This document shows, one piece after another, positions 961 to 63,421 of a stretch of 64,000 nucleotides of DNA (position 1 is its first letter; every line of letters starts with the position of its first letter). The position numbers and the translations under genes were made by a program. This DNA comes from Candidatus Omnitrophota bacterium. Its GTDB lineage: Bacteria; Omnitrophota; Gorgyraeia; JAGLLT01. The notes beneath the pieces are model-generated. The model was not told the DNA's origin. It saw nothing but the letters and a program-made list of their open reading frames with translations, and searched no databases. The DNA lies in contig DAOVJY010000002.1 in the NCBI GenBank assembly GCA_030632085.1, positions 77,325 through 141,324 on the forward strand. The letters run 5' to 3'.

Positions 961-2688
961 ATGACCGATGATTTTCTGAGAAGAAAACCATTAGGTGAAA
1001 TTCTTTTTGATCAGGGTATAATCAGCCAGGAGCAATTAGATGAAGCGCTTGAAGACCAGAAAAAAAGCGGCCGGTTATTAGGTAGAATCCTGGTTGAATT
1101 TGGCTTTGTAAAAGAGGAAAGAATTCTGGAAGCTCTCGGTATTCAGATTGGTATGAAGGTTACTAATCTGGCCGACATGAATATACCCGAAGAAGTCATT
1201 AAGCAAGTGCCTTCTTCATTAGCTCAGGTTTATAATGTAGTTCCCGTTAAAATTGAAAATAATATTATTACCGTAGCCCTATCAGACCCGCTTAATATAA
1301 ACGTTTTGGATGATTTAAGATTTGTTTTGAATTGTGAAGTTCAGGGAGCAATTGCCATGGAGGAAGATATTAACGAGGCTATAGAAAAATATTACGGGGT
1401 TACTACTCAGGAAGATTCCCTCAATGCTCTGGTTCAGGAAATAGAAAAAAGTACTCCCACGGTTTTATCGGCTGAAATTCAAGAGATGCAGGATATTACC
1501 AGTTTAAAAGAGCTCGCCTCCCAGGCTCCGGTTGTAAAGCTGGTTAACCTGGTTCTTTTGCAGGCCGTAAAAGATACGGCCAGTGATATTCATTTCGAAC
1601 CTTTTGAAGATGAATTTAAAGTCCGTTATCGTGTTGACGGTGTTTTATATGAAATAACCCGTCCTCCTAAGAATCTTAGTTTGGCCATAACTTCCAGAAT
1701 AAAAGTTATGGCCGGCCTGGATGTAGCTGAAAGCCGAATTCCTCAGGATGGTAGGATTATGATGCGTGTAGCCGGTAGAGGTATTGACCTGCGCGTTTCT
1801 ACTTTACCGACCGTTTTTGGAGAAAGTGTGGTTATGCGTGTTTTAGATAGAAGCGTAATCAGTTTAGATTTGGATCAAGTCGGCCTGACAACCGAGCAGC
1901 AGGACATCGTTAAGAAACTTATCAGTAAACCTAACGGTATTATTCTTGCAACCGGCCCCACCGGCTGCGGCAAAACAACTACGCTTTATTCCTGCTTAAG
2001 GGAAGTTAATAAAATTGAATATAAGATTATTACAACTGAAGATCCGGTTGAATATGATATTTCCGGGATTATCCAGGTTAGTATTAAGCCTAAAATTAAC
2101 CTGACTTTTGCCGCGTGCTTAAGGCATATATTAAGACAGGACCCGGATATTATAATGGTTGGTGAAATTCGCGATAAAGAAACGGCCCAAATAAGTATAC
2201 AAGCCTCATTGACCGGCCACCTGGTATTTTCTACTTTACACACTAATGATGCTCCGGGAGCGGTTACCCGATTAATTGACATGGGCATTGAGCCTTTCTT
2301 AATATCTTCAACCCTTGAGTCGGTTGTCGCTCAGAGGTTGATACGTGTTCTATGCCCTAAGTGTAAAGAGGCCTATGTGCCGGATGAATATGAACTATCC
2401 CAGATTAATCTTTCTCAGGATAAGGCCGCGGATAAGACATTTTATCGGGCCAAAGGCTGCCATGAATGTAATGATATTGGTTATAGAGGCAGAACCGGAA
2501 TATTTGAAATACTGATAATGACTGATAAAATCAGAACTCTTATTATGGATAAATCCCATACGGCTCTTTTAAGAAAAGCGGCCATTGAAGGCGGTATGCG
2601 TACTTTAAGAGATGATGGCCTACTTAGAGTATATGACGGTTTAACTACTATAGAAGAAGTTATCAGGGAAACTCAAGGGTATTCTTAA
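961..2688 (+). CDS. pilB: Type IV pilus assembly ATPase PilB/GspE
   Basis: 575 aa with a GSPII_E N-terminal domain, Walker A GPTGCGKTTT and a C-terminal tetracysteine motif CPKC...CHEC. It follows pilT directly. Confidence 0.9.
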   Translation: MTDDFLRRKPLGEILFDQGIISQEQLDEALEDQKKSGRLLGRILVEFGFVKEERILEALGIQIGMKVTNLADMNIPEEVIKQVPSSLAQVYNVVPVKIENNIITVALSDPLNINVLDDLRFVLNCEVQGAIAMEEDINEAIEKYYGVTTQEDSLNALVQEIEKSTPTVLSAEIQEMQDITSLKELASQAPVVKLVNLVLLQAVKDTASDIHFEPFEDEFKVRYRVDGVLYEITRPPKNLSLAITSRIKVMAGLDVAESRIPQDGRIMMRVAGRGIDLRVSTLPTVFGESVVMRVLDRSVISLDLDQVGLTTEQQDIVKKLISKPNGIILATGPTGCGKTTTLYSCLREVNKIEYKIITTEDPVEYDISGIIQVSIKPKINLTFAACLRHILRQDPDIIMVGEIRDKETAQISIQASLTGHLVFSTLHTNDAPGAVTRLIDMGIEPFLISSTLESVVAQRLIRVLCPKCKEAYVPDEYELSQINLSQDKAADKTFYRAKGCHECNDIGYRGRTGIFEILIMTDKIRTLIMDKSHTALLRKAAIEGGMRTLRDDGLLRVYDGLTTIEEVIRETQGYS

Positions 2689-2840
2689 ATGAATAAGATA
2701 GTTAAGGCTGGTAGCTTGTATTTGATAATTGTTGTGCTTAAACTAAAACATCCCGCATACTGCGGGATTTAATTCTGGCAAATTACTTACATTCGCTTAC
2801 GCTCTGTAAGTAATGCCCTCATTAAAGGAGGTAACCGAAA

Positions 2841-4127
2841 TTGCCTAAATTTGAATATAAAGCTATAGATCCTAACGGTAGAGAAATTTCAGGTGTTGTT
2901 GATGTCGGAACTACGCAAGAAGCTGTTTCTAAAATAAAAAATAAAGGGTTTTATCCGACACAGATAAACGAAGTAAAAAAAGAACAAGCTCAGAAATCTC
3001 CCGGAGCGGCTGCTGCTGCCGCGCCTGCCGCGCAAAAAAAAAGCGGACTTAATGCTGAATTATGTATTCCTTTTCTGGGCATAGGTACTGTTAAAAATGT
3101 TGATGCCGCGATTTTCACCAGGCAGTTGGCCACGTTAATTGAAGCCGGCCTTCCTTTGGTAAGAAGTTTAAATGTTTTGTATGATCAGCTAAAATCCGGG
3201 CCCTTAAAAAGTATTATATCTAATCTTTCAAAAGACGTTTCCTCCGGAGGTACTTTAAGTGAATCTCTGGCCAAGTACCCTAGGGTTTTTAACCATCTTT
3301 ATGTCAATATGATCAAGGCCGGTGAGGCCGGCGGCATACTTGAACTTGTTTTAGAAAGATTAGCTGAGTTTCAGGAAAAAAACATGGCCTTGACTCAAAA
3401 GGTAAAATCAGCCCTTACTTATCCGGCTTTGGTTGTTGTTTTCTCAGCCGGCGTTCTTTTGTTTTTAACCACCTATATTATTCCCAAATTTATGGGTATT
3501 TTTGAGAATATGGATGTTGGTGAAATGCCGGGCATTACTAAATTTGTTATGATTATGAGTTCGCTTATAAGGGATAAATGGTATATCGGTGTCGGCCTTA
3601 TGGTTTTGGCTATTGTCGCTCTTAAAGTACTAAATAGCTTTAAGAATAGTAAATTTTTCATAGATAAGTTTAAACTGCGTATTCCCGTAGCGGGAGACTT
3701 AACTAAAAAAATAGAAGTATCCAGATTTTCCAGAACTCTGGGTACTCTTATTTCCAGCGGTGTTCCTATCTTGCAGGCTTTACGAATCACACGGGGAATA
3801 ATGAGTAACGAAGTCATGCGCAGGGCTCTCAAGCGTGTTCATGATAGTATCCGCGAAGGTGAATCTATAGCCGGCCCCTTAAAAGCCAGCGGAGCTTTTC
3901 CGCCCATGGTTGTGAATATGATAGATGTTGGTGAAGAAACCGGTTCTTTGGATACCATGCTCAATAAAGTCGCTGATATTTATGATACTGATGTTGATGC
4001 CACGGTAGACGCCTTGACTTCAATCATTGAACCATTTTTGATTGTCAGTATGGGTGTTATTGTAGGTTTCCTGGTAATTTCTATGTTCCTGCCGCTCTTT
4101 AAACTTATGGCTTCATTATCCGCTTAA
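2841..4127 (+). CDS. pilC: Type IV pilus inner-membrane platform protein PilC/GspF
   Basis: 428 aa with two GspF-type repeats and three TM segments. TTG start follows the SD AAAGGAGG. Confidence 0.85.
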   Translation: MPKFEYKAIDPNGREISGVVDVGTTQEAVSKIKNKGFYPTQINEVKKEQAQKSPGAAAAAAPAAQKKSGLNAELCIPFLGIGTVKNVDAAIFTRQLATLIEAGLPLVRSLNVLYDQLKSGPLKSIISNLSKDVSSGGTLSESLAKYPRVFNHLYVNMIKAGEAGGILELVLERLAEFQEKNMALTQKVKSALTYPALVVVFSAGVLLFLTTYIIPKFMGIFENMDVGEMPGITKFVMIMSSLIRDKWYIGVGLMVLAIVALKVLNSFKNSKFFIDKFKLRIPVAGDLTKKIEVSRFSRTLGTLISSGVPILQALRITRGIMSNEVMRRALKRVHDSIREGESIAGPLKASGAFPPMVVNMIDVGEETGSLDTMLNKVADIYDTDVDATVDALTSIIEPFLIVSMGVIVGFLVISMFLPLFKLMASLSA

Positions 4128-4144
4128 AGAGCCGGTTGTTGGTT

Positions 4145-4173
4145 TTGGACATAGTTTAAGAATGTGGTATAAT
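4145..4173 (+). promoter_or_regulatory. Sigma-70-type promoter TTGGAC-N17-TATAAT upstream of the pilin gene array
   Basis: -35 TTGGAC at 4145-4150, a 17-nt spacer and -10 TATAAT at 4168-4173, about 20 nt upstream of the first pilin ATG. Confidence 0.55.
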
Positions 4174-4192
4174 ACGTTATAGAGGTATATGT

Positions 4193-4618
4193 ATGAAAAA
4201 CAACGCTTTTACTATAGTTGAATTAATGATTGTACTCATTATTATGGGTATTCTGATGGGGCTTACCGTAGGAGGAGCTATGAAGATTCTGCAGGAGGCC
4301 AAAAAAGGGCAGGCGGAGGCTGATATAGGTGCTCTTGAATCGGCTGTATCCAGGTATGAAAGGGATATTGGTAGTTATCCCCCTGATTCAGCTAACGGTT
4401 TATGGTATTATCTTGAGGATGATAGATCAGGAGATCCAACCGGTTGGGAAGGCCCTTATATTGATTTTGATGACGGTAGGACTTCAGATAATAATTATGA
4501 AGACCCCTGGGATAATAATTATCAGTATGATTGCACAAGTGTAACTAGGCACAATCTTGACTTTGTAGACATATGGACGACAGTTCCAAGTACAGGGGAT
4601 ACAATAGGCAATTGGTAA
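4193..4618 (+). CDS. GspG-type pseudopilin / major pilin paralog 1
   Basis: Prepilin N-terminus MKNNA|FTIVELMIVLIIMGIL, and GspG hallmarks DIGSYP, WEGPYI and DPWDNNYQY. The C-terminal tail is rich in aromatic and acidic residues. Confidence 0.8.
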   Translation: MKNNAFTIVELMIVLIIMGILMGLTVGGAMKILQEAKKGQAEADIGALESAVSRYERDIGSYPPDSANGLWYYLEDDRSGDPTGWEGPYIDFDDGRTSDNNYEDPWDNNYQYDCTSVTRHNLDFVDIWTTVPSTGDTIGNW

Positions 4619-4632
4619 AGAGGGTGTTTTAA

Positions 4633-5118
4633 ATGATATATAGTAATAAAAAGGCTTTTACATTAGTTGAAATGATAACTGTGATGGTTATTGTCGGTAT
4701 TTTATTAGGGCTTGTGCTAACGGGTTCTTTTAACGCGATTAAGGAAGCTCGAATTGAAAAAGCTAAAGCGGCAATGAAGGCGACTAAGGCGGCGTTAGAG
4801 ATGTTTGAATCGGATATTGGTGATTATCCCGTATATACAAATACATCCGGTAATGGAAATGATTTTAAGTCTTGGTTGATGAATGGGGATCATGCAACCG
4901 GTAATTATGACAACTGGTATGGGCCTTATATGAGTTTTATAGATGCTGAAATTTTAAGTAACACTCATTATTTGGATCCCTGGGGAAACGGTTATAGATA
5001 TTATCATGTAGCGGATACGGATGGCTATAATCTTTGGTCGTCCGGGCCGGATGGAAATAATGACAGCCTTGATGGTGAAAGCGGTATAATCGGAGATGAT
5101 ATAGGTAGTTGGGACTGA
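4633..5118 (+). CDS. GspG-type pseudopilin / major pilin paralog 2
   Basis: KKA|FTLVEMITV N-terminus; motifs DIGDYP, WYGPYM and DPWGNGYRYY; SD AGAGGG. Confidence 0.8.
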   Translation: MIYSNKKAFTLVEMITVMVIVGILLGLVLTGSFNAIKEARIEKAKAAMKATKAALEMFESDIGDYPVYTNTSGNGNDFKSWLMNGDHATGNYDNWYGPYMSFIDAEILSNTHYLDPWGNGYRYYHVADTDGYNLWSSGPDGNNDSLDGESGIIGDDIGSWD

Positions 5119-5123
5119 TAGAT

Positions 5124-5636
5124 ATGAAAAAAATAAAAGCTTTTACATTGATAGAGTTATTAATGGTAATGGTAATTATCGGTATTTTAGCTTCCCTGAT
5201 TACTACCGGGGCTTTTAGGTCTATAAGGGGTGCTCGGGAAAGCAAAGCACAGTCTGATATAGCGGCCCTGGAAACGGCCATTGAGAGATATAAATTAGAT
5301 GTGGGCGTATATCCTCCGGGAGACGGTTCAGGCAACAGCTTTAAGTACTACCTGCAGGATGACAGGAGTGTCGATACAACCGGCTGGAATGGGCCTTACA
5401 TGATTTTTAAAGCTAAGGATTTAAATGTTAACGCTTTTGTTGATCCCTGGGGAAGTGATTATAGATATTATCATGATCAGCTCACCACAGGGAAAGCGTA
5501 TTTGCATACCTACCCGGATACGCATATCACTCAAAATCCAATTGATATATGGTCTATTGGCGAAAACAAAACAGATGATGTAGAAACGACTAATTATATT
5601 AACACAGATGATGATATATACAGCTGGGGGGATTAG
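5124..5636 (+). CDS. GspG-type pseudopilin / major pilin paralog 3
   Basis: MKKIKA|FTLIELLMV N-terminus; motifs DVGVYP, WNGPYM and DPWGSDYRYY. ATG at 5124 is preferred over the ORF-track start at 5109. Confidence 0.8.
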   Translation: MKKIKAFTLIELLMVMVIIGILASLITTGAFRSIRGARESKAQSDIAALETAIERYKLDVGVYPPGDGSGNSFKYYLQDDRSVDTTGWNGPYMIFKAKDLNVNAFVDPWGSDYRYYHDQLTTGKAYLHTYPDTHITQNPIDIWSIGENKTDDVETTNYINTDDDIYSWGD

Positions 5637-5648
5637 TTGGTGATTAAT

Positions 5649-6179
5649 ATGAAAAAGAAATCTTTCACTCTTTTAGAGATGATGGTTGTCTTGGTTATTA
5701 TTTTTATAATAACAGCGATTGCGATGCCTAATTTCTGGGGAGGCTATAAGAGCAAGGAGGTTAAAGGTTCCGCGAGGAGAGTTGCCTCTATTTTAAGTAC
5801 CGCTAAAAGCTATGCCCAAGCTCAAAATACGCAGTATGATGTTGTTTTTTGGTATGGCGATAGTTTTCTTAGTATGGATATTTATAAAGAGTTTGATCCT
5901 TGGACTGAAGCGAGTTGGGATCGTAAAGTTGGAAAATCTGAAAAATTCAATTTTACGAAAGTTGGAATTAGTACTATAATTGATACACCCATTACTACAC
6001 CCATCAGCAATTATGCCTGGATATCATTCTATTCCGATGGGCGCGCTGATGATCATGATGCTAATCTTCCGGAAGATGAAGAGATTGTTTTTACGCTTGA
6101 TGTCGGTGGAACCCCCAAAACCCTTACAATATATATCAATGAAAACACCGGCTGTATAAGAGTTGGTGATTTAGAATAA
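5649..6179 (+). CDS. GspH-like minor pseudopilin
   Basis: MKKKS|FTLLEMMVVLVII prepilin N-terminus; about 175 aa, the size of GspH/FimT. ATG 5649 is preferred over TTG 5637. Confidence 0.65.
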   Translation: MKKKSFTLLEMMVVLVIIFIITAIAMPNFWGGYKSKEVKGSARRVASILSTAKSYAQAQNTQYDVVFWYGDSFLSMDIYKEFDPWTEASWDRKVGKSEKFNFTKVGISTIIDTPITTPISNYAWISFYSDGRADDHDANLPEDEEIVFTLDVGGTPKTLTIYINENTGCIRVGDLE

Positions 6180-6236
6180 TTGATTGCATATTTTCTTGCC
6201 TTTTTTATTTCCTCATGATATAGTTAGCTCCGCGTT

Positions 6237-6713
6237 ATGAGGAATTCAAGTTTAAAATCATCTTTCACTATAATTGAGCTGGTAGTCTGCCTGGTTATTG
6301 TGGGTACTATTTCAGCGGTAACTTTGCCGTATTGTTGGGGCGCTTACAGGTCTGCTGAAGCTAAGACTTCCGCCCGTGTTGTTGCTTCAATATTAAGAAG
6401 CACAAAAGAGAGTGCCCGGGCTCAAGGTAAGAAATATGAGATTATTTTTGCAGCTTGTGATAATAATCTTAATATTGATGTCTATACCAACTTATCAGAA
6501 GTTAATCCTTTGAAAGTAGGTAAGACCGAGAAACTATCCTTAAGCGGTTCATATGAATTTAGAATAACATTTTATAATGATAAAGCCATCTTTACTTCTT
6601 TTGGGACTTCTAACGGAGGGTCTGTTTATATTACTGATACTTCTACAGGCAAAGGTTATAGGATAAGTGTGTTATCAACCTCCGGCAGGGTTAAAGTGCT
6701 GGCTTTTGATTAA
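6237..6713 (+). CDS. GspH-like minor pseudopilin (second copy)
   Basis: SS|FTIIELVVCLVIVG N-terminus. It shares the core ARVVASIL..A with the previous gene, so it is a paralog. Confidence 0.6.
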   Translation: MRNSSLKSSFTIIELVVCLVIVGTISAVTLPYCWGAYRSAEAKTSARVVASILRSTKESARAQGKKYEIIFAACDNNLNIDVYTNLSEVNPLKVGKTEKLSLSGSYEFRITFYNDKAIFTSFGTSNGGSVYITDTSTGKGYRISVLSTSGRVKVLAFD

Positions 6714-6745
6714 TAGCGGTTAGATTTATTTTTCTTTTCTTATCA

Positions 6746-6774
6746 TTGATAAGTTTTGTAACTTGTGGTATTAT
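6746..6774 (+). promoter_or_regulatory. Candidate sigma-70 promoter TTGATA-N17-TATTAT
   Basis: Read directly from the sequence, upstream of the GspI-like gene. Confidence 0.4.
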
Positions 6775-6835
6775 ATACAGTAGAGATAGTATGCATTAAG
6801 TGAATATAATATTTTTTTTAGGAGGTTTATAAAAA

Positions 6836-7198
6836 ATGAGAAAAAAACAAGGGTTCACTCTTTTAGAAATAGTTATTGCTTTGGCTATATTAGCTATCGG
6901 CCTTGTTGGTATTTTAAGCCTTTTTCCGGTAGGTTTTGAGGCCTCAAGAAGGGCCAGTATGCTTACGGAGGCAACTATCCATGCTCAGCAAAAAATGGAA
7001 GAGTTTAAGCGAATCGGCTATGATGGCCTTTTTGATACAAATTACGCGGCATTTTCTGATAATAGTGGTTTGGAATGGAAGGTTACGGTTGTAGAAATAG
7101 ATCCTCTCGGGAATTTAAAAAGCGTAACTCTCGATATTCAATGGCAGGAGAAAGGGGACAATAAGAGTGAGACATTTGTTACTTATATCGCCAAGTAA
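6836..7198 (+). CDS. GspI/PilV-like minor pseudopilin
   Basis: MRKKQG|FTLLEIVIALAIL N-terminus; 120 aa, the size of GspI. Confidence 0.65.
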   Translation: MRKKQGFTLLEIVIALAILAIGLVGILSLFPVGFEASRRASMLTEATIHAQQKMEEFKRIGYDGLFDTNYAAFSDNSGLEWKVTVVEIDPLGNLKSVTLDIQWQEKGDNKSETFVTYIAK

Positions 7199-7817
7199 AA
7201 GAAAGGCTTTTACCCTTATTGAAATACTGGTAGCCAGTGTTATCCTGGTTATTATAGTTGGGTCTATGGCGGTAATTTTTTCGCAGGCTAATCGGTCGTG
7301 GAGTGAAACGGAAGCCAGATTACAGGTTTATCAAAATACCAGGGAAGTTATAAACGCGATCTCCAGAGATATTGCCTGCGCCTATCAAAGCACCAGCACT
7401 GTTGTTAAATTCGATTATGACAACATTGCTACTGATACTCTCTATTTTACCGCGGCGGTTAATACAAATTACGACACAAATGAATATGATTTAAGTATTA
7501 TCGGCTACAAAATAGACACCGCAACCAATACTGTAAAAAAATATAAAGAAGATTATGACGGAACACAAGCTGCCGGCTGGACACCAACTTCCGGCAATTG
7601 GAGCCCTTTGGCTGAGAATATAACCGGTTTGGCTTTTGAGTTTTATGACGCGGATCAGACAGTTCCCGGATGGCTTGTATCAGGTAGTAAATGGAATTCT
7701 AGTGTAGGTGTAAAAGATTATTTACCCCAGGCGGTTAAGATAACAGTTGATGCCGAGGATAAACAAGCTAGATTCAGTAGAACTTTTAATACCACTATCT
7801 ATATTCAGGCATACTAA
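7167..7817 (+). CDS. GspJ/PilW-like minor pseudopilin
   Basis: KRKA|FTLIEILVASVIL N-terminus; 216 aa. It overlaps the previous gene by 32 nt. Confidence 0.6.
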   Translation: MRHLLLISPSKRKAFTLIEILVASVILVIIVGSMAVIFSQANRSWSETEARLQVYQNTREVINAISRDIACAYQSTSTVVKFDYDNIATDTLYFTAAVNTNYDTNEYDLSIIGYKIDTATNTVKKYKEDYDGTQAAGWTPTSGNWSPLAENITGLAFEFYDADQTVPGWLVSGSKWNSSVGVKDYLPQAVKITVDAEDKQARFSRTFNTTIYIQAY

Positions 7818-7914
7818 TTTTGAGAGCATCTATTCAAATAATCAAGAAGTTACGCGGTAAATATGGCATTAACGGCTATGAAGAGAAGTTTCTAAATAAT
7901 CTAAGGTGGTAGAT

Positions 7915-10344
7915 ATGTTAGTAAATTTAAAAAAGAGAAAAGGTATTGCCCTGCCCCTCATCATAGGTATCATTGCTCTTTTGGTTATTATTGTAATGGG
8001 CTTAATAGTTGCTTTGAAGTATGAAACGATAAGCGTCATAGTATCTTCAGATCTACAAAAGGCCGCTTATCTTGCTGATTGCGGAATTAATAAGGCGATC
8101 GCTGGATTAAAAACAAAGGCAGGAAGTGATTTTATCTGGAGTGTAAATGATACAGGTCTAGATGATACTGATTGGTATGACGGATATAGCTGTAGTACCT
8201 TATTAAGTAATCTGGGTTCATATAATGCTAATATTATAGATTGTTCGAATCAGATATATGTTAATGGTGATAATACCGGTGATAGATTAGAAGATATGTT
8301 AAATATCTTAGGCGGAAATATTGGAGGAGGCTGTAGCGGCGATGAAGGAACCAAGATTATTAACAATCGCCCGACAGCCGGCTACGAGACCAAGAAACAG
8401 CTAAGAATTGCCTTAACCGACGGTGAATATAACGCTATTAAAGATTATGTGACAATCTGTAGCTATGTAAATAGTTCGTTTAACCGGGCCCCTATAAATG
8501 TCAATACGGCAAAGCAAGCTGTTTTAGAGACCGTCTTAGAGGGCATATCGGGTATCTCAGATGGGCAAGCAGCTACAGCCGCTAACGCCATTATGAATGG
8601 AAGCGATAAAAGGCCTTTTTCTGATTGGAGCGGTTTTGATACTTGCATAGACGGCACTCTTTTAACTTTAGGCGAGAAACAGTCTATCAAAGATAACTGT
8701 AATCCTAACTCTACCGCCTGGAACAGCACTACTGGAGCATATGAACACACTTCGGATACAACAGAATTCTGTTTTCACGCTGGAGGGTATTTTGAGATAG
8801 AGTCAGAAGGCACCTTTTATCAATCCGCCGCCCAAAGTATTATTCTTGCCCGGAAAAACATTGCTACTATAGTTCATACTCATAGTGTATTTAATAAAAC
8901 TACTAAAGCCGATTTTACCGCGGGGGATACCAATTTTGACGGAACAGAAGATATCGCGGGAGAAGGTGTACCTATCTATGGAAATGTCAACTGGCTTGAT
9001 TCTTGCCCTGTTGATTCGAGTGATGAAACTGGATTGTATTCTGATGAAGCTGCGGGAATATATGATGTAGATGAGACTGATAAATGCAAACCTTTATATG
9101 ATGTTATTCCCGGCTCAATAAAATTAGGTTTTTGGGATAATTGTGATGAGGAGAATGATAATACCGCTCAAACAGGTTGGAGCTGGGAGCACTGGATAGA
9201 TTCTGAAAGCGGCTCTCTTGCAATAGTTGACCGTGATTCAGATGGTGATTATGAATTGAGCTCGACTTCCAGCAACTCAGATTCTCATCTAGATCTTCTT
9301 GGGGTTCAACCCGACCAGTGGAATTGCGGCCAGAAATTCTCAATTAGATTATACGCTCATTTATATGAAGAAAAACCTCACCCATATATAGTTGCGGATA
9401 GTAGGCGATGGGGCGAGATTTATGAAGACGAGCAGCAGATAGAATTTGTCGGGATAGGCGGAACACCTGATATGCATAAGATGTTTGTAAGTCAGTTTAG
9501 ATGTGTATACTGGGGTGGTCCGGTGGATATAAGCGGCGGCGGATTGAACCCACCCGATGATTTTTTAGATACTATGCTTAGAATGATTTGGGATGGCGGC
9601 GGCGGAGAGCACTATGTTTATATGCATGATTTATATAGTTTACCTATTAATAGTGCTACATTACCCGCAGATGGTAATCGTATCCTTCCCTGGAATGTTG
9701 CTATGAGATTAGTTGTTGATGGAAGTGGTGACGGTAATTATACGGCATACCTCGCGGTTGATGACGGAGGCGCTTATCATGAATGGTATGCAGGAGATGG
9801 GGGCGAGTGGATTCCATGGAGCTGGCGGATTCATATGGTGAAGTATGACGCGGATGACCATGACTTCCATATCATGACAGATGTAGGCGATACTGACAGA
9901 TATGATTGTATGAATCATGACCAATCAGTCAATAAGTTTATAAAGACTGATTGGTTTCTACGCTTAAGAAATGATGTCCCAAGTTACAGCCGCTATCCAA
10001 TATGGGATGATGTCCGTATTATTCCTGATGAGGGATATTATCAATCACCTCAGTATAGTCCGACAGGAGGTTCTAATGTTGAATGGGGAGCTATAAACTG
10101 GACACTGACCATGCCAGATTCTGCAAGTTCTTCTTCAGAGACAGCTGAGGTTGAAGTTGATACAGGCAGTGGTTTTAGTCCAGTGAGCCAGAATGGTAGT
10201 ATAAATGCGGCTGCATCGAGTAATATAAAATATAAAGTTACTTTAAAATCAACCGATACAACTCATAAAGAAACACCTGTATTTGAGGATATAACGGTGA
10301 TTTATTTGCCGCAAACGAAAGTATTGTACCGGAGTGGGCAATAA
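7915..10344 (+). CDS. Giant GspK/PilX-like pseudopilin, putative pilus-tip protein
   Basis: Uncleaved hydrophobic N-terminus KGIALPLIIGIIALLVIIVMGLIVAL and a GspK-type HhH-like motif NVNTAKQAVLETVLEGISGIS. It occupies the GspK slot after the I/J-like genes. The central insertion of several hundred residues, rich in Cys, Asp and Gly, is unusual. ATG 7915 with SD AAGGTGG is preferred over GTG 7906. Confidence 0.55.
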   Translation: MLVNLKKRKGIALPLIIGIIALLVIIVMGLIVALKYETISVIVSSDLQKAAYLADCGINKAIAGLKTKAGSDFIWSVNDTGLDDTDWYDGYSCSTLLSNLGSYNANIIDCSNQIYVNGDNTGDRLEDMLNILGGNIGGGCSGDEGTKIINNRPTAGYETKKQLRIALTDGEYNAIKDYVTICSYVNSSFNRAPINVNTAKQAVLETVLEGISGISDGQAATAANAIMNGSDKRPFSDWSGFDTCIDGTLLTLGEKQSIKDNCNPNSTAWNSTTGAYEHTSDTTEFCFHAGGYFEIESEGTFYQSAAQSIILARKNIATIVHTHSVFNKTTKADFTAGDTNFDGTEDIAGEGVPIYGNVNWLDSCPVDSSDETGLYSDEAAGIYDVDETDKCKPLYDVIPGSIKLGFWDNCDEENDNTAQTGWSWEHWIDSESGSLAIVDRDSDGDYELSSTSSNSDSHLDLLGVQPDQWNCGQKFSIRLYAHLYEEKPHPYIVADSRRWGEIYEDEQQIEFVGIGGTPDMHKMFVSQFRCVYWGGPVDISGGGLNPPDDFLDTMLRMIWDGGGGEHYVYMHDLYSLPINSATLPADGNRILPWNVAMRLVVDGSGDGNYTAYLAVDDGGAYHEWYAGDGGEWIPWSWRIHMVKYDADDHDFHIMTDVGDTDRYDCMNHDQSVNKFIKTDWFLRLRNDVPSYSRYPIWDDVRIIPDEGYYQSPQYSPTGGSNVEWGAINWTLTMPDSASSSSETAEVEVDTGSGFSPVSQNGSINAAASSNIKYKVTLKSTDTTHKETPVFEDITVIYLPQTKVLYRSGQ

Positions 10345-10355
10345 AGGAGCAGGAT

Positions 10356-11453
10356 ATGAAATCTACAATTGTTATTCTGATAACGGTTATTTTTTTATTT
10401 ATGATAAGTCCCTGTTTCGCAAGCTTGCCAATAGATGAAGCCGTTGATGAATTTAGTCAAAGGCTGGGTAAGATTACAAGCGATGGTATAGATAAAGATG
10501 ATGCTGAAGATTATTTTGAGTTGGGTAAATTCTGTATAAAAAACGGCTTACTTGAACGCGCTAAGGTTATTTTAGAAAAAGCGGCCGGCCTCGATCCAAA
10601 ATATCAAGATAGAGTAGAACATCTTTTGGCTGATATAAAGGATAAAGAAGAGCGGGGTAAGGATTTAGGATTAATTTATTCTGCATATGATGATTACAAC
10701 TTAGGATATTACGGTGAGGCAAAGATAAAGCTTGAAGAGTTGATAGAGAAATATGAAGAAAGTGAATATGTCAATAAGGCAGAGAATCTTCTTGATGAAA
10801 TGAAAAATAAAACAGAAGATAAGCCCTTTCTTTTAACTCCTGTTACAGATAATCCGATGGAATTTAGAAAGTTTATCACCGATATTATAAAAGAAAAAGC
10901 AAAAGAGCGGAATTGTGATGTGAAAGAAATTGATGTATCAAAGGTAAAAGAGGAATATCTATCAAACCTCATTAAAAAGGCCGAATATTTTATCTCTGAC
11001 ATGACAGCCAAGAGCAACGGAGAAAGCTTAAACCAGGATTACCTTTTTTTTGCAATGAAGTGTACAGAGGTAGTTTTCAAATTGTCAGAAAATGAAAAAT
11101 TAAAAGAGAAAACAAAAGACATTCAAACCGAAGCCGCGAACAAGTTATTTACCGAGTACCCGTTGCCGGCTGATATAAAAAATCTGGATTTATATTATAA
11201 GAGGCTGCAGTTAGTAGATAATAAAGAAATTATTAAGAATATATGCGAGAAATATCTTAAACTTGGCAATGTTTATCTTGAAAGAGCCAATGAATCAGAG
11301 GGCCGGAAAAAGATTGATTATTTGGTCAAAGCTTATGATGTATTTGCGATGGTTAAAGATTACGCGAAATCCGATGAGATTAAGAATAAGGCCTTTAGAA
11401 AAATAAAATTGATTCAAAAAGAGAAGAGGAAAGAAGTAAGAAAATTAAGATAA
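10356..11453 (+). CDS. Secreted helical TPR-like protein, possible PilF-like pilotin
   Basis: Signal peptide MKSTIVILITVIFLFMISPCFA; helical, repeat-like composition. It lies inside the pilus locus. Confidence 0.35.
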   Translation: MKSTIVILITVIFLFMISPCFASLPIDEAVDEFSQRLGKITSDGIDKDDAEDYFELGKFCIKNGLLERAKVILEKAAGLDPKYQDRVEHLLADIKDKEERGKDLGLIYSAYDDYNLGYYGEAKIKLEELIEKYEESEYVNKAENLLDEMKNKTEDKPFLLTPVTDNPMEFRKFITDIIKEKAKERNCDVKEIDVSKVKEEYLSNLIKKAEYFISDMTAKSNGESLNQDYLFFAMKCTEVVFKLSENEKLKEKTKDIQTEAANKLFTEYPLPADIKNLDLYYKRLQLVDNKEIIKNICEKYLKLGNVYLERANESEGRKKIDYLVKAYDVFAMVKDYAKSDEIKNKAFRKIKLIQKEKRKEVRKLR

Positions 11454-11716: not shown

Positions 11717-13375
11717 ATGGCAATTAAGAATTTAATCGGGCTAGATATAGGCCATAGCGCGGTCAAGTTAATAAAATTTAAGAAAGTCCGCAATAAAATA
11801 CAGCTTGAGAAGGCCCGAGTGGTTGAACTGCAAGATGGTGTTTCCCCTTCAGCGGCAATAGCCGCGCTTTTTAAAAGTGAACGATTAGGCGCTTGCAAAA
11901 TAGCTATATCCGTTTCAGGCCAGTCTGTTTTTACGCGCTATACAAAGCTTCCTAAAATATCCCAGAAAAAGATTGAACAAGTAGTTAAATATGAAGCCCA
12001 GCAGCAGATTCCTTTTCCGATTGATAAGGTTGTTTGGGATTATCAGCTATTTAAAATATCTAAAGGCTCTCAGTTGGAAGTTTTTCTGGCTGCCGTTAAG
12101 AAAGACATTATAGATAATTTATATCGCCAGGTAAACGCGATTAAAGGAGCTGAAGTTGTTTCTGTGCAGCCCGCGCCGGTAGCTCTTTATAATATACTTA
12201 ATTTTAATAAAGAAATAAACGATAAAACGGTTATTTTAGATATTGGAGCTAATGTTACCAGCGCTATCATTGCTAAAGGCAGGCAGTTGTGGATAAGAAG
12301 TATACCTATGGGCGGGGCCGAGTTAACCAGGGTTATAGGTGAAAGCCTGGCTTTAAAACCTCAGGAAGCGGAGATTTTAAAACGTAAAGAAGGTATCGTG
12401 TTGGCGGGTGTTACCGGTGATGAAGACCTGACTCCAAGGTCAGACGCGATTTCAAAGGCTATTAGTCCCGTGTTAAGTGAACTTTTATCGGAAGTTTCAC
12501 GTTCTATTAGTTATTATAAATCTCAATTTGATAAAGAAGCGGTTTTTGAGAAAGTGCTGCTGACAGGCGGCGGTTCTAAGATACGTTATATCGAAAGATT
12601 TTTTGAAGCTAACCTGAAGATAAAGACAGAAAAAGTCAATCTTTTTAAAAATTTAACCACTAATAAATACGTAAAAGCTAACATTGATGACATTGATGAT
12701 CGCTTGGCGGTTGCTATGGGCTTAGCCCTCCCGGGAGTAGAAACGCCGACTATTAATTTAAATTTGATTTCTGATCAACAAAGGAAGCTCAAAGACTTTT
12801 CAAAGAAGAAAGTATATATTACCAGCTCCGCGTTAATTGCTCTCGGTATTTTTGCCATGCTGAGTTTATGCAATGCGCAGGGAGTGAATTCAGCTGCCGG
12901 CAATCTTAAAGCTATATCTCTTGAAATGAATAAATACCGTGATAATCAAGTAACAATAAATGAGTTGCAAAACAGTATCAAGGCTGTAAAACTAAAGTTA
13001 AACTTTTTAGGAGATATTACTAAAGACAGAACAATCTGGCTGAATATATTATCAAGAATAAACGGTTCTTTGCCGGGGGATACTTGGTTAATCAGGTTTA
13101 GCACCGACGCGAATGAACCTAATATTATTATTTTAGAAGGTAAAACAACCGGCCCTTTTGATACAATTAAAAACTTCGGGGAAAAGCTTCTTAGCCTTGG
13201 GTTTTTTTCCGGCGTTGAAACTTTGCGGGCTGACAGGCCGTCGGCTGAAGAAGAAGAGTTAGGCGAGCCGTACAATATAGTGTTTACTTTAAAGTTGATG
13301 TTGAAAAACCCGGCTTCTAATTTTTTCATAAGAAAAGAACCTGTAGCCGCGGAAAACAAAAGAATTAAAAGATGA
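11717..13375 (+). CDS. pilMN: PilM-PilN fusion protein (actin-like ATPase fused to a TM coiled-coil domain)
   Basis: N-terminus LIGLDIGHSAVKLIK is a PilM/FtsA-like fold. An internal TM helix VYITSSALIALGIFAMLSLC at about aa 365 is followed by a PilN-like periplasmic region. Confidence 0.75.
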   Translation: MAIKNLIGLDIGHSAVKLIKFKKVRNKIQLEKARVVELQDGVSPSAAIAALFKSERLGACKIAISVSGQSVFTRYTKLPKISQKKIEQVVKYEAQQQIPFPIDKVVWDYQLFKISKGSQLEVFLAAVKKDIIDNLYRQVNAIKGAEVVSVQPAPVALYNILNFNKEINDKTVILDIGANVTSAIIAKGRQLWIRSIPMGGAELTRVIGESLALKPQEAEILKRKEGIVLAGVTGDEDLTPRSDAISKAISPVLSELLSEVSRSISYYKSQFDKEAVFEKVLLTGGGSKIRYIERFFEANLKIKTEKVNLFKNLTTNKYVKANIDDIDDRLAVAMGLALPGVETPTINLNLISDQQRKLKDFSKKKVYITSSALIALGIFAMLSLCNAQGVNSAAGNLKAISLEMNKYRDNQVTINELQNSIKAVKLKLNFLGDITKDRTIWLNILSRINGSLPGDTWLIRFSTDANEPNIIILEGKTTGPFDTIKNFGEKLLSLGFFSGVETLRADRPSAEEEELGEPYNIVFTLKLMLKNPASNFFIRKEPVAAENKRIKR

Positions 13376-14160
13376 AATTTTTTAAAGAACTGCTTCAGAG
13401 AAATTTAATATTTTTTATTGTAACAGCCTTACTGTTATTAGTGGTTGTTGCCGCCGGGGTTAATTTTGCTTCCGGCCTTGGAAAGAAATATTCCCTGGAC
13501 GGTAAAATCCAAAAAGAAATGCGGCTTTTAGATAATTTCAAAACGATAAAGGACGCGGCTCCAACTTTAAAATGGATAGATTATCTATCTAAAAAAGAAA
13601 AGCTTTTTGGTAAAATATATGTTGATGCCGGCTTACTGTATGATAAGCCGGCGTCTTTTATGCCAAAAGATATTATTGAACCTTTAAAATTCAAGGAAAA
13701 GATTTTTAAAAAGCAGAAGGAGATGCGTAAAAAGGCGTATTCCAGCCAGCTTGAATTAAAAGAAGAGGCTGTATCTTTTGGTTTTAAGGAATATGAAACC
13801 AAGATACCAACTGAAGCCGAAGTTCCAAATTTGACAAAAAAATTGGATATTATTCAAGAAGTAGTAAATCTTATGTGCCTCAGTCATATTGAGACCTTAT
13901 CTTCAGTTGAGTTTCTAACTCATAGAGATGACAAGTTGGAGACTATTCGGGGTAATATCAATTACAGAGTTTTTTCTTTAAGGCTTAGCGCAACCTCATC
14001 CGTGAAAAAATTGGTTGATTTATTATTCAAAATATCAACGTCGGATTATATATTTATAACCGAAGAATTAAATATCGCACAATCGGAAGATTTTAAGGAA
14101 AAAATAAATTCAAGTTTTGTTATTTCGTGCATAGTACTTATGGAGAGCGATGAAAAGTAA
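13372..14160 (+). CDS. PilO-like inner-membrane pilus assembly protein
   Basis: Single N-terminal TM helix LIFFIVTALLLLVVVAAGV followed by a soluble domain. Its position after pilMN and 4-nt overlaps with both neighbours support the call. Confidence 0.45.
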   Translation: MKFFKELLQRNLIFFIVTALLLLVVVAAGVNFASGLGKKYSLDGKIQKEMRLLDNFKTIKDAAPTLKWIDYLSKKEKLFGKIYVDAGLLYDKPASFMPKDIIEPLKFKEKIFKKQKEMRKKAYSSQLELKEEAVSFGFKEYETKIPTEAEVPNLTKKLDIIQEVVNLMCLSHIETLSSVEFLTHRDDKLETIRGNINYRVFSLRLSATSSVKKLVDLLFKISTSDYIFITEELNIAQSEDFKEKINSSFVISCIVLMESDEK

Positions 14161-14836
14161 TCCCTTATTATCCAATATAGAAAAAATAGTTTTCGGACTC
14201 TTGATTCTCATTTCATTAATTGTTATTGTAATCTATCAAGGGCGTATTTATATTAAAGATGAAACTATCAAAAATAAAATAGCCGGAGTTAAATTTAATT
14301 TACCTCCTGAAAAAATTGAAGGCGTTAAAGAATATAATGACTTAATCGCGCGGCTTAAGCGGTTAGATAGTTTTAGTAAATATGAAATCTATCTCGCGAG
14401 AAACGGTTTTCTGAAATATATTAAGCCGGTGCCCGAGATACCTCCATTTGAATTAAAGGCTGTCCGTAAAAAATATCTGGATGTGGAATATAGGGGTTTT
14501 ATAGAGTCTCTTTCGGGTACCGTTGCCCAGTTAAAGGTGAAAAACAGATCTTACTTCGTTAAAGAAGGCGATGAAATTGATGGCTATACAGTTAAAAAAG
14601 TATGTAATGATTATATGCTCATTAAAGATGGGGCCGGCGTTGAATACATATTGCCTTTAGGAGAAAAGATTTTAAGTAATGATTATGAGGCCGCGCTTTA
14701 CGTAAGTAAAACACATAAGACGGTTAAGGTAAAATTGGGTGATATTGTAAATGGCTTCAAAGTACTTGACATTTCACCTGAGAATGTGGTATTATATAAC
14801 CAAACTTATAATAAAAAACTAATTGTAGAGAAGTAA
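14150..14836 (+). CDS. PilP-like pilus assembly protein (putative)
   Basis: N-terminal TM helix IVFGLLILISLIVIVIY and a beta-rich C-terminal region. Its position between pilO and the secretin genes supports the call. Confidence 0.35.
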   Translation: MKSNPLLSNIEKIVFGLLILISLIVIVIYQGRIYIKDETIKNKIAGVKFNLPPEKIEGVKEYNDLIARLKRLDSFSKYEIYLARNGFLKYIKPVPEIPPFELKAVRKKYLDVEYRGFIESLSGTVAQLKVKNRSYFVKEGDEIDGYTVKKVCNDYMLIKDGAGVEYILPLGEKILSNDYEAALYVSKTHKTVKVKLGDIVNGFKVLDISPENVVLYNQTYNKKLIVEK

Positions 14837-14891: not shown

Positions 14892-16001
14892 ATGTGCAGG
14901 CTTCTTAAAAAATTTACTGTATTAATTTGCTTAACTATAGTAATAGTCTTTGCTCTCAATAATATAGCCTATTCTCGAAGCAAAACAGACGCTGAAGATT
15001 TAGCCAAAAAGCTTGCTGTGCAGAAGAAGCTGGAGCAGGAAGAAAACGAGATATTGATAGATGGCCGTAATCAACGGGGCATTTATTATTTCAACAAAGG
15101 ATATTATAATGAAGCTATTCAGCAGTTTCATTTAGCCCTAGAGCTTGATCCCGGTAGTGCCGTAGCCAATGAATATCTCAATAAGGCATTGGAAAAACTT
15201 AGCAAGTCGGCTAAGAAGCATTATAAAAAGGGTGTGGCTTACTATAATAAGGGAGAAATGCAGAAATGTATTGATGAAATGTCTATGATACCCGTATGTT
15301 CTTCTTATTATCAAAAAGCGCAAGAGTATATTACATATTCTGATGAAGTATTGACCGAAGGTGCCGTTTATGGAATAAATAGCCCTAAAGCCGGAACACA
15401 GCACATTAAAGATCAAATGAGGCAAATGGACTCAGAGAAAGAGTTAGTTATGCTGCGCAAAAAAGCTCACGAGCAGCAACTCATGCTTGAAGTAGATTCA
15501 GCCTATTTACCCCCGGAATCATATGAAGAAGCAGCGGAGGAAGAAGCTATAAGCGCTGAAGAAATAGAAGAGCAGCAAAGAGAAGAAGCTCAGAAAAGAT
15601 TGCGGGCTAAGATGAATGAAAACATTGTTCCCGCTTTAAGTTTAAGTGATGCCGATATCAGAGATGTTATCAGGGAATTAGTTAAATTAACCGGTGTTAA
15701 TATCATTCTTGATGAAGGAGCTCTAAAGAAGGCATTAGAAGCCGGCATTATGACAGTGTCGTTTACTACCGTTACCCCCATGCCGCTTTTAGACTTATTA
15801 GATATTGCTTTAAAAACTTCCGATTTAACTTATAAAATGGAACCTACATATATATGGATCTCAGATAAAGAAACTATATATAAAGAAAACTTAGTCGTTA
15901 GGACTTATAAGCTTAAATATGGAGTAAGAAGCACTAGAAGTGTGCAGCTTACTCAATTTGGTGATGACGTGGATGATGACTTTGGTGATGATGATTTTTA
16001 A
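14892..16001 (+). CDS. Secreted TPR protein carrying a secretin/TonB N0-like (STN) domain with an acidic C-terminal tail
   Basis: Signal peptide and a TPR region (YFNKGYYNEAIQQFHLALELDP). The segment DADIRDVIRELVKLTGVNIILDEG...TVSFTTVTPMPLLDLLDIALKTSDLTYK matches the N0 domain of PilQ/GspD. The protein ends DDVDDDFGDDDF. Confidence 0.6.
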   Translation: MCRLLKKFTVLICLTIVIVFALNNIAYSRSKTDAEDLAKKLAVQKKLEQEENEILIDGRNQRGIYYFNKGYYNEAIQQFHLALELDPGSAVANEYLNKALEKLSKSAKKHYKKGVAYYNKGEMQKCIDEMSMIPVCSSYYQKAQEYITYSDEVLTEGAVYGINSPKAGTQHIKDQMRQMDSEKELVMLRKKAHEQQLMLEVDSAYLPPESYEEAAEEEAISAEEIEEQQREEAQKRLRAKMNENIVPALSLSDADIRDVIRELVKLTGVNIILDEGALKKALEAGIMTVSFTTVTPMPLLDLLDIALKTSDLTYKMEPTYIWISDKETIYKENLVVRTYKLKYGVRSTRSVQLTQFGDDVDDDFGDDDF

Positions 16002-55993: not shown

Positions 55994-56070
55994 GGCGGCA
56001 TACCCAAGTGGTTTAAGGGGACGGTCTGCAAAATCGTTATTCATCGGTTCGAATCCGATTGCCGCCTCCA
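55994..56070 (+). tRNA. tRNA-Cys(GCA)
   Basis: Acceptor GGCGGCA/TGCCGCC; anticodon arm ACGGT-CTGCAAA-ATCGT; T-arm ATCGG-TTCGAAT-CCGAT; CCA is encoded. Confidence 0.8.
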
Positions 56071-56235: not shown

Positions 56236-56322
56236 GGGCGAGTGGTGGAATGGCAGACACGTGGGACTTAAAATCCCATGGATGAATAATCCGTGTGGGT
56301 TCGACTCCCACCTCGCCCACCA
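56236..56322 (+). tRNA. tRNA-Leu(TAA)
   Basis: Acceptor GGGCGAG/CTCGCCC; anticodon loop CTTAAAA; long variable arm; T-arm GTGGG-TTCGACT-CCCAC; CCA is encoded. Confidence 0.8.
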
Positions 56323-56587: not shown

Positions 56588-56664
56588 GGGCGGTTAGCTC
56601 AGTTGGTTAGAGTGCCACGTTGACATCGTGGAAGTCACTGGTTCAAGTCCAGTACCGCCCACCA
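56588..56664 (+). tRNA. tRNA-Val(GAC)
   Basis: GGGCGGTTAGCTCAGTTGGTTAGAGT D-arm; anticodon arm GCCAC-GTTGACAT-CGTGG; T-arm ACTGG-TTCAAGT-CCAGT; CCA is encoded. Confidence 0.85.
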
Positions 56665-63243: not shown

Positions 63244-63421
63244 ATTTAAGTAGAGAAAAAAATTCCCTGCTTTGCGCGTGAAGGGCGCATAGGTTTGAGC
63301 TAACACCATTTTAAGGGGAACCTAACTTCATGATGCCTGATGGCAAAATGAGAGGTACCCACTTAGTAGACTGGGTTCAAAACTACCACTCTCACACGGC
63401 TATGGCGGGGAATTTTTATAT

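Follow-up and report, generated by a model that had tools for sequence, protein, structure and literature searches.

Why would one bacterial locus keep three different genes for a major-type pilin side by side? The question is raised by a 64,000-nucleotide stretch of DNA from a Candidatus Omnitrophota bacterium (assembly GCA_030632085.1, contig DAOVJY010000002.1, forward-strand positions 77,325 to 141,324; hereafter the window), which carries at positions 4193 to 5636 three adjacent GspG-type genes that we call G1, G2, and G3. To our knowledge, a single major pilin makes up the polymer in nearly every type IV filament described, and the sole bacterial exception solved contains two near-identical subunits. 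A first-pass annotation, made from the sequence alone, had taken the three genes for paralogs of a major pseudopilin and had proposed a filament of three major subunits, phase or antigenic variation, or the surface display of distinct tips. The explanation that we favor, and hold to be moderately probable, is that G1, G2, and G3 all encode functional type IV pilins of the GspG fold that serve a single retractile pilus machine of the type IVa or Planctomycetes–Verrucomicrobia–Chlamydiae (PVC) type in a Kappaea-related member of the Omnitrophota, with a mixed filament as their likeliest product.

Three intact genes for GspG-fold pilins

All genes of the locus described below lie on the + strand. 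G1 (positions 4193–4618), G2 (4633–5118), and G3 (5124–5636) encode GspG-fold prepilins of 141, 161, and 170 amino acids, respectively. Their matches to the Pfam family T2SSG (PF08334), at 46.5 bits (E 4.4e-12), 40.3 bits (E 3.7e-10), and 46.4 bits (E 4.6e-12), all exceed the gathering score of 21, and their N_methyl matches of 25.7 to 29.8 bits compare with a cutoff of 21.2. The open reading frame (ORF) finder placed the start of G3 at a TTG at position 5109, which would give 175 amino acids, but the ATG at 5124 appears the likelier start because the database record P0130 is exactly the 170-residue product. A search of protein clusters gave no name to any of the three proteins. The leader and cleavage regions read A/FTIVE in G1, A/FTLVE in G2, and A/FTLIE in G3, the slash marking the cleavage site, with Phe at +1, Glu at +5, and a hydrophobic α1N. 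The residue before the cleavage site, canonically Gly, is Ala in G1 (4205–4210), G2 (4654–4659), and G3 (5139–5144) and Ser in the two downstream minor pilins H (5660–5665) and H2 (6260–6265); orthologues use Gly, Ala, or Ser interchangeably at this position.

The three proteins share 40 to 43% pairwise identity. Of the core motifs listed in the first-pass annotation (DIG.YP, W.GPY, and DPWG..Y.Y), all are present, but G1 has DPWD in place of DPWG and G3 has DVG.YP in place of DIG.YP. An AlphaFold2 (AF2) model of G1 had a predicted local distance difference test score (pLDDT) of 86.9, with a well-ordered terminal β-hairpin (pLDDT about 90), and the AF2 model of G3 had a pLDDT of 83.3, with 61 to 72 over residues 121 to 140 and 62 to 64 over residues 151 to 170. 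When the two models were compared with the Protein Data Bank (PDB) using Foldseek, the top 13 to 14 matches were all GspG (EpsG, PulG, XcpT, and GspG of enterohemorrhagic Escherichia coli), with a probability of 1.0 and target-normalised TM-scores of 0.55 to 0.70; the best matches of G3 were EpsG and PulG. G2 was placed by sequence alignment only, ungapped on residues 92 to 124 of PulG. Profile alignments to PDB entries likewise matched the G proteins to PulG, EpsG, and XcpT, with α1 ungapped over residues 1 to 59, and their matches to PilA and PilE were limited to α1. The conserved Cys pair of the disulfide-bonded D-region of type IVa pilins (PilA/PilE) was not found in the G proteins, which have 0 to 2 Cys per mature protein. 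On the NCBIfam equivalog for GspG (TIGR01710), G1, G2, and G3 scored 61.7, 71.4, and 66.9 bits, all under the cutoff of 88.85. The claim of three tandem and intact GspG-type paralogs was therefore borne out by family matches, mutual identity, and predicted fold.

The paralogs differ in recognizable ways. G1 is the shortest and the most conserved, with a mean column identity of 79% over 6 orthologues. G2 has an enlarged, Trp-rich αβ loop and a basic face (K37/K41/K44) on α1C, and G3 has an insertion of about 20 residues in the β-sheet region and a long, variable C-terminal loop. As mature proteins they comprise 136 to 164 residues with globular heads and are strongly acidic (net charge −11 to −16) and rich in aromatic residues (12.5–15%), as compared with −1 and 8% in a classical relative.

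Such a composition brings to mind aromatic-rich, electrically conductive "e-pili," for which sequence-based predictions in Omnitrophota have been made (PMC10066038); the aromatic content is 12 to 17%, and G2 and G3 contain no aromatic-free gap longer than 25 residues. We nevertheless give this function very little chance. The criterion is a weak sequence heuristic, G1 has an aromatic-free gap of 49 residues, and GspG-fold proteins of this size with globular heads are not short Geobacter-type pilins. The variation of the heads between strains, described below, is also unsuited to a conserved electron path.

Conservation and origin of the triad

The order F-G1-G2-G3-H-H2, in which F is the platform gene upstream of G1, is the same in seven further genomes (L001, L004, L007, L010, L013/L014, L022, and L026), which together with the window form an eight-genome set. 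The closest named relative is a metagenome-assembled genome (MAG) of Candidatus Kappaea frigidicola (L007; Omnitrophota, PVC group). Neighbor-joining trees divided the 24 G proteins of this set into three position-specific orthologue clades, with bootstrap values of 100, 100, and 90 to 99%. Within each orthologue group, the ratio of nonsynonymous to synonymous substitution rates (dN/dS, Nei-Gojobori) was 0.06 to 0.45, dS being saturated for most pairs.

It is extremely unlikely, on this evidence, that the genes are redundant or decaying duplicates of which a single one matters. Such an account could appeal to relatives with a single G gene and to the lost calcium ligands of G1 and of the G3 proteins of L004 and L010. 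It is opposed by the low dN/dS in every group and by the state of the genes themselves: no frameshift or stop was found in 30 genes from 10 triad loci, no copy is truncated, and each G gene is full length and carries a start codon, a leader, and a ribosome-binding site of its own. Gene order and spacing are conserved, and the group-specific residues are invariant. The first-pass annotation had named one conserved paralog beside decaying copies as the outcome that would speak against it; we found three clades maintained in eight genomes under purifying selection.

More distant relatives indicate how the triad arose. L030 (7001–7462) and L031 (7001–7444) have a machine of the order ATPase-PilT-ATPase-PilC...PilMN with a single G gene and one H-like gene, and L030 also shares the upstream PHO4-PhoU synteny. 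The presence of a single G gene in these relatives, whose machine is the same, marks the triad and H2 as a derived expansion, the triad having been duplicated from a single-G ancestor within the clade. The G protein of L030 has a G1-like tail (FVDIEDGSSKGINNW); its grouping with G1 had 49% bootstrap and was not relied on. Three G genes are also present in the distant loci L027/L028 and L029.

The G2 profile was narrow: an exhaustive HMMER search of 1.84 billion sequences returned one representative at 264 bits, with the next at ≤144 bits. A scan of GTDB contigs with the PilC alignment yielded 4 loci only (the Kappaea contig, a distant locus of Gracilibacteria, and two incomplete ones, a fragment of 1,962 bp and a truncated contig), and when metagenome contigs were scanned with the G1 alignment, at least two distant loci were confirmed among the matches listed. 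The locus L020 turned out to be a classical type II secretion system (T2SS) with a single GspG. In L026, the operon is broken after H2 by toxin-antitoxin-like genes (2840–4576; a DUF6036/AbiEii-like gene and an NTP_transf_2 nucleotidyltransferase).

Replacement of the pilin block between strains

Comparison of close relatives showed that a block consisting of the head of G1, G2, G3, and H is swapped by recombination between otherwise identical strains. The nucleotide sequences of L007 and L010 are 100% identical over approximately 7.5 kb from PHO4 through PilC. The drop begins inside G1 (90%, then 82%), identity is 40 to 67% across G2-G3-H, and it returns to 95 to 97% in H2, which delimits a variable block at about 7600 to 9540 in L007 coordinates with identities of 40 to 85%. 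The encoded proteins follow the same course, from 100% identity in E1, PilT, E2, and F to 86% in G1, 62% in G2, 66% in G3, and 69% in H, the minor pilin that lies within the block, and then 94% in H2. Because dS between the two strains is 0.45 to 1.4 in the block and 0 in the flank, the difference is that of an old allele imported by recombination and not the product of local hypermutation.

Both alleles exist in nature side by side. The L007-type allele was assembled independently on a 3-kb contig (L008) that is 99.5% identical and spans both junctions, and L008 and L010 share the JGI sample 3300025669, which places both alleles in one metagenome. One ENA sample (ERZ25746724) yielded a second allele pair, L022 and L026, whose contigs each begin some 110 nt before G1, at the F/G1 junction; their comparison gives a mosaic in which blocks of 97 to 100% identity alternate with blocks of 56 to 70%. 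The tree topologies of G1, G2, and G3 mutually disagree. In the G2 and G3 orthologue groups, the mean column identity was 0.32 to 0.52 in the heads against 0.77 to 0.93 in α1; G1 was more even. Positive selection on the heads was considered as a cause of this variability and is not supported, since dN/dS is below 1; the variability is that of imported old alleles. Co-existing pilin types are as expected of a structure that is exposed at the cell surface to phages, hosts, or prey.

Since strains with identical flanks carry divergent blocks, and both occur in one metagenome, these data point to allele replacement and not phase variation. The phase or antigenic variation envisaged in the first-pass annotation therefore has a counterpart at the population level, where block alleles co-occur in one sample, but not within the cell, for which silent cassettes, simple-sequence tracts, and conserved invertible repeats were looked for and not found. 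A within-cell mechanism of the Neisseria pilE/pilS type, in which a pilin is rewritten from neighboring copies, or switching by slipped strands or inversion, is accordingly very unlikely. Its support lies in the distant L027, where the terminal stretches of 51 nt in genes 2 and 3 (3341–3391 and 3826–3876) are identical at 50 of 51 positions, against 66% overall; a weaker signal is present in L029, where 59 of 72 nt are identical between 6897–6968 and 7397–7468, against about 66% overall. In both loci the second pilin gene has undergone gene conversion with the third, confined to the region of the C-terminal tail, and the near identity in L027 implies that the tail module can move between paralogues.

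Among the paralogues of the window, by contrast, no recent gene conversion was found, and their longest similar stretches are ≤41 nt at ≤85% identity. There are no promoterless, 5′-truncated silent copies at this locus, where all genes are full length, nor were tandem or homopolymer tracts found, and the orthologue clades remain distinct (bootstrap 90–100%). The sole bracketing inverted repeat, a 27-nt pair at 4616–4642 and 6130–6156 around G2-G3-H, was considered as an invertible element and judged a chance occurrence; it is 81% complementary and absent in six relatives. The short tail type of L027 is also found on G2 of L010.

C-terminal tails and the GspG calcium loop

The C-terminal tails quoted for the three proteins in the first-pass annotation were exact, but its reading of them as aromatic and acidic tails with a shared motif of their own (..GNW or ..SW(G)D) was not upheld. 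The motif is a family signature, because EpsG, PulG, and L015 end alike. The end of Vibrio cholerae EpsG (...GADIGNW) aligns on that of G1 (...GATIGNW), the C-terminal end of PulG is GPDGVPESNDDIGNW, and L015, a classical relative with a single GspG, has the tail "...GPDGVADNADDIGSWDQ" and the C-terminus DDIGSWDQ. Upstream of this end, PulG (...LGPDGVPESND) aligns on G2 (...SGPDGNNDSLD). Judged from these alignments, the tails are the canonical GspG Ca2+ loop and C-terminal DDIxNW motif in what appear to be three evolutionary states.

In PulG and OutG, Ca2+ is held by five ligands, namely, D117 (of GPDG), D125 (of DDIGNW; possibly also D124), S/T122, and two backbone carbonyls (PMC13081927). 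The loop of G1 is 4 to 5 residues shorter than that of PulG and the protein ends exactly at ..IGNW; the principal Asp ligands are replaced by Ser and Thr, and the aspartates are not conserved in G1 orthologues. G1 is compact and probably does not depend on the calcium site of GspG. G2 retains the Asp residues of both GPDG and DDIG in a loop that is, by alignment of sequences, about 8 residues longer, and several of its orthologues end in DDIGG without the Trp. In G3 of the window, GENK replaces GPDG, with Asn for D117, DDD is kept, and the end is DDDIYSWGD; its orthologues range from the full GPDG...DDITxWD to total loss of the loop (SAGAINNWD in L004 and L010).

A second hallmark of T2SS pilins is the set of inter-subunit salt bridges between E44/D48 and R87/R88, described as "highly conserved ... 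essential" (PMC13081927). The Arg pair, sought 4 to 5 residues before DPWG, is absent in G1, G2, and G3. Position 44 is Glu in G1 and G3 and Lys in G2, and position 48 is Ser, Glu, and Glu in G1, G2, and G3, respectively.

Signals for joint expression

The best sigma-70-like site within positions 2600 to 8000 is a promoter-like site with an extended −10 element at 4146–4173 (+ strand), 20 nt upstream of G1. Identified by its match to the consensus, it reads TGGACA-16 nt-TATAAT with TG just upstream of the −10 element and agrees at 11 of 12 positions. Its −10 element, AATATGRTATAAT, does not vary among 8 lineages, of which the distant L027 is one. The ribosome-binding site of G1, AGAGG at 4181–4185, is AGAGGTA in 7 of 8 lineages and AAGGATA in L027, and that of G2 is good (AGAGGGTG). 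The intergenic gaps are 14 nt between G1 and G2 and 5 nt between G2 and G3; no terminator-like site was found between the three genes and no conserved internal promoter within the triad. The conserved promoter-like site, the short gaps, and the lack of a terminator-like site between the genes argue for co-transcription of the three genes.

This arrangement bears on the possibility that one machine builds separate homopolymers as conditions change, each of two PilB-like ATPases perhaps driving one of them. Thermus makes wide PilA4 pili and narrow PilA5 pili in this way. Relatives of the window do have two extension ATPases with an MshEN domain beside PilT, Thermus builds two distinct pili in one bacterium (PMC7203116, PMC13039148), and proteins of about 40% identity with distinct α1C surfaces, basic in G2 and acidic in G1, might polymerise apart. 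We nonetheless consider this unlikely. With a single promoter-like site, tight gaps, and neither an internal promoter nor a terminator-like site, there is no visible basis for differential expression. Relatives with a single G gene likewise have two extension ATPases; the second ATPase therefore did not arrive with the extra pilins.

The machine around the triad

The genes before and after the triad form a co-directional locus. The PilT-family retraction ATPase (2–958; TIGR01420 pilT_fam, 391 bits versus a cutoff of 319) is cut by the left edge of the window and is followed by a PilB/GspE-type extension ATPase with an N-terminal MshEN cyclic di-GMP-binding domain (961–2688; TIGR02533 GspE, 649 bits against a cutoff of 630; TIGR02538 PilB, 641 bits against a cutoff of 676; MshEN-related motif) and by the platform protein PilC/GspF (2841–4127; GspF 402 bits and Thermus-type PilC 399 bits, both under the equivalog cutoffs). 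In relatives, a PilT of 355 amino acids is preceded by a second MshEN-ATPase (E1 in L001, L004, L007, and L010), so that two MshEN extension ATPases flank PilT; in the genome of the window, the first of them would fall just to the left of the window.

Downstream of the triad are the GspH-like minor pilin H (5637–6179; N_methyl and a weak GspH match of 42 bits), the second H-like minor pilin H2 (6237–6713; weak N_methyl, ComGD, and GspH matches), an I-like minor pilin (6836–7198; N_methyl and a PilV/GspI match under the cutoff), a J-like minor pilin (7167–7817; N_methyl and a T2SSJ match under the cutoff), and a giant GspK-like minor pilin of 812 amino acids, the presumed tip subunit (7906–10344; weak T2SSK matches). 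The K-like protein is hypervariable, with 37 to 42% identity to most relatives and 80% between L001 and L004, and L001, L004, and L013 have a second K-like gene further downstream. A tetratricopeptide repeat (TPR) protein (10356–11453) is followed by a PilM-PilN fusion (11717–13375; PilM_2, E 5.7e-38; TIGR01175 pilM, 150.8 bits versus a cutoff of 133; Amuc_1101 family, 294 bits), an Amuc_1100-family-like protein (13372–14160; 36 bits), a 228-residue ORF with no family match (14150–14836), and a second TPR protein, which matches positions 216 to 396 of the Amuc_1098 family (14892–16001). Two tandem short secretins follow (16015–17190 and 17190–18350; Secretin domain, E 2e-41 and 1e-43). The segment 14892–18350 resembles a split and duplicated secretin, not a single long PilQ or GspD. 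The PilM-PilN fusion and the Amuc_1100-family-like protein probably form the inner-membrane part of the machine.

Is this machine a T2SS that secretes folded proteins and makes no surface pilus, with G1 as the sole major pseudopilin of a classical endopilus acting as a piston in the periplasm, and with G2 and G3 as extra minor pseudopilins by which the choice of substrate is adjusted? All three G proteins have the GspG fold and fall in its Pfam family, H-, I-, J-, and K-type minor pilins are present, and the extension ATPase scores above the GspE equivalog cutoff. Furthermore, the α3-β1 loop of PulG and OutG sets secretion specificity (PMC13081927), and the same loop differs most among G1 to G3. 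Against these similarities stand PilT and the PilM-PilN fusion, together with the failure of the profiles to find GspC, GspL, or GspM among the proteins of the window, where the sole GspC signal was a 21.8-bit match. The G proteins fall short of the GspG equivalog cutoff, both salt-bridge arginines are missing in all three, and replacement of the pilin block between strains would hardly be expected of a structure confined to the periplasm. A T2SS is consequently improbable.

At the level of the machine, the locus has the type IVa set of a PilB-like ATPase, PilT, PilC, PilM/N, and a secretin; PilO- and PilP-like functions are not recognizable by profile in the locus. Because PilT and PilM/N are present and GspC, GspL, and GspM are absent, the machine is by its gene content identified as a type IVa or PVC-type pilus with GspG-fold pilins, not a canonical T2SS. 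The label "pseudopilin" used in the first-pass annotation is therefore probably a misnomer. In Omnitrophota, type IVa pili are encoded almost universally and have a proposed role in attachment to host or prey, according to the available part of the phylum survey (Seymour et al. 2023, PMC10066038).

A proposed mixed filament and its weighing

Taken with a pilus machine, the conserved triad suggests the following course. The three genes would be transcribed jointly from the conserved promoter-like site ahead of G1, and a prepilin peptidase would cleave each product after the small residue (Ala, Gly, or Ser) that precedes Phe at +1. The platform of PilB, PilC, and PilM-N would then polymerise the subunits beneath a tip complex of H, H2, I, J, and the giant K, and the filament would exit through the secretins and be retracted by PilT. 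G1 would be the conserved core subunit, and G2 and G3 would be additional subunits in which most of the variation falls in the αβ loop, the β-sheet insertion, and the C-terminal Ca loop. From these features we infer that G1, G2, and G3 may co-polymerise in one filament. In mature numbering, the α1C face is basic in G2 of the core clade (K37/K41/K44) and acidic in G1 (E37/D39/E44), a difference of charge that hints at heterotypic contacts.

Several observations weigh against the favored explanation. The three proteins, about 40% identical, are far more diverged than PilE1 and PilE2 of Streptococcus sanguinis. L030 and L031 indicate that the machine can work with one G gene, and G2 and G3 could be low-abundance accessory pilins; the ribosome-binding site of G3 is weak. 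The assignment of the G genes of L027 and L029 to G1, G2, and G3 had bootstrap values of 28 to 74% and was not relied on. dN/dS is below 1 everywhere, including the heads (0.14–0.45, Nei-Gojobori). No prepilin peptidase is encoded in the 64-kb window, and the ATPase at 961–2688 also passes the GspE equivalog cutoff, which makes a role in secretion possible.

Filaments of more than one major subunit are known from the type IV pilus of S. sanguinis and from the archaellum of M. villosus, in which ArlB1 and ArlB2 alternate. A more specific proposal, for which we see only a small chance, is an obligate three-component heteropolymer. G1 to G3 would occupy defined, non-equivalent positions in it, for example as pre-formed heteromers in the manner of ArlB1/ArlB2, guided by the complementary α1C faces, and the swappable heads of G2 and G3 would provide a strain-specific surface for recognition of host or prey. 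If so, it would be the first ordered multi-subunit type IV filament of a bacterium.

If co-assembled, the three proteins would offer a natural system for the question of how a pilus machine selects and orders different subunits, and would show how the surface of a filament can change while the machine stays as it is. Should G1 alone polymerise, the triad is an ordinary expansion of pilin genes. What the data describe is that a clade of uncultured, probably host-dependent Omnitrophota keeps three deeply diverged major-type pilins across lineages with saturated synonymous sites. The polymorphism between strains marks the pilus as an interface under pressure from phage, host, or prey in a phylum without a cultured representative, and the cassette could for this reason serve as a marker for strain typing and for hypotheses on host range. 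Multi-pilin loci have precedents, as do pilin islands that vary among strains; what is new is the combination of three deeply diverged GspG-fold pilins, a unit with one promoter-like site, a machine of the PilT/PVC type, and exchange of the block between co-existing strains. In the literature on Omnitrophota pili that we searched, a triad cassette with block exchange is not described.

Other features of the window

The remainder of the window is occupied by housekeeping genes, including those for PolA, Rho, RF1, folate enzymes, Rnf, pyrimidine synthesis, and tRNA synthetases. Nearly all ORFs of at least 150 amino acids lie on the + strand, the four on the − strand overlapping + strand ORFs, and this strongly uniform orientation over 64 kb is accompanied by a positive GC skew in every 2-kb bin. 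Rfam matches mark tRNA genes at 55994–56067, 56236–56319, and 56588–56661 and a 6S RNA gene at 63261–63415. Two ORFs among the housekeeping genes, at 25739–26557 (272 amino acids) and 42849–44081 (410 amino acids), have no Pfam family and weak Cys-rich or RING-like matches.

Comparison with known systems

The G proteins resemble GspG of T2SSs (PulG, OutG, EpsG, and XcpT) in the leader with F+1 and E+5, the ungapped alignment of α1 over residues 1 to 59, the DPWG..Y.Y core, the D-D-I-x-N/S-W end, and the predicted fold. They differ in that three paralogues are present in place of one, all under the equivalog cutoff, that P22 is replaced by Gly or Thr and R87/R88 are absent, and that the Ca loop is shortened in G1, lengthened in G2, and variable in G3. 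The proteins here are also acidic and aromatic-rich, and their genes belong to a PilT/PilM-N machine without GspC, GspL, and GspM.

The pilus of S. sanguinis is a mixed one, in which the co-expressed major pilins PilE1 and PilE2 differ in a loop and in the C-terminal tail (PMC10628169), and the triad likewise consists of tandem major-pilin paralogues that differ mainly in these regions. The S. sanguinis subunits, however, are two near-identical non-GspG proteins of a monoderm, as opposed to three that are about 40% identical, and co-assembly has been proven there and is inferred here. Thermus thermophilus uses a single type IVa machine for more than one major-type pilin (PMC7203116, PMC13039148), as is proposed here, and Thermus type IVa pilins resemble T2SS pseudopilins (PMC5131608); its PilA4 and PilA5, however, form separate homopolymers.

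The PilM-PilN fusion and the Amuc_1100-like ORF link the Omnitrophota machine to the PVC-type pilus cluster of Akkermansia muciniphila (Amuc_1098–1101), with which the locus has in common a PilM-like protein of the Amuc_1101 family, an Amuc_1100-like protein, and an Amuc_1098-like secretin after the pilin genes. The scores on the corresponding equivalogs are low (294 versus 650 bits for Amuc_1101, 36 versus 180 for Amuc_1100, and 119–142 versus 750 for Amuc_1098), which identifies the locus, at the level of profiles, as a relative and not a member of the Amuc_1098–1101 family. The Amuc_1098-like function here appears to be split into a TPR protein and two short secretins, and the Akkermansia cluster is not known to include a triad of pilins. 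Within the phylum itself, the "type-4a pilus" loci of Omnitrophota (PMC10066038) are of the same kind, with attachment to host or prey as the proposed function; that survey, in the passages searched, scores presence and absence and does not describe GspG-type pilins, a triad, or cassette replacement.

In its exchange between strains, the block resembles the pilin locus of Pseudomonas aeruginosa, where divergent alleles of the pilin and linked genes are swapped by recombination between similar strains, pilus-specific phages being a plausible driver. Kus in 2004 and Giltner in 2011 reportedly described the pilin allele groups and the pilin island of this species. A more recent preprint (bioRxiv 10.64898/2026.03.17.712343) bears on the same subject. 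Unlike the unit exchanged in P. aeruginosa, the one here lacks accessory glycosylation genes, comprises three pilin genes and a minor pilin, and belongs to an uncultured nanobacterium. As in a strain-variable pilin island, flanks of 100% identity enclose a block of 40 to 85% identity in L007 and L010, and L022 and L026 provide a second pair.

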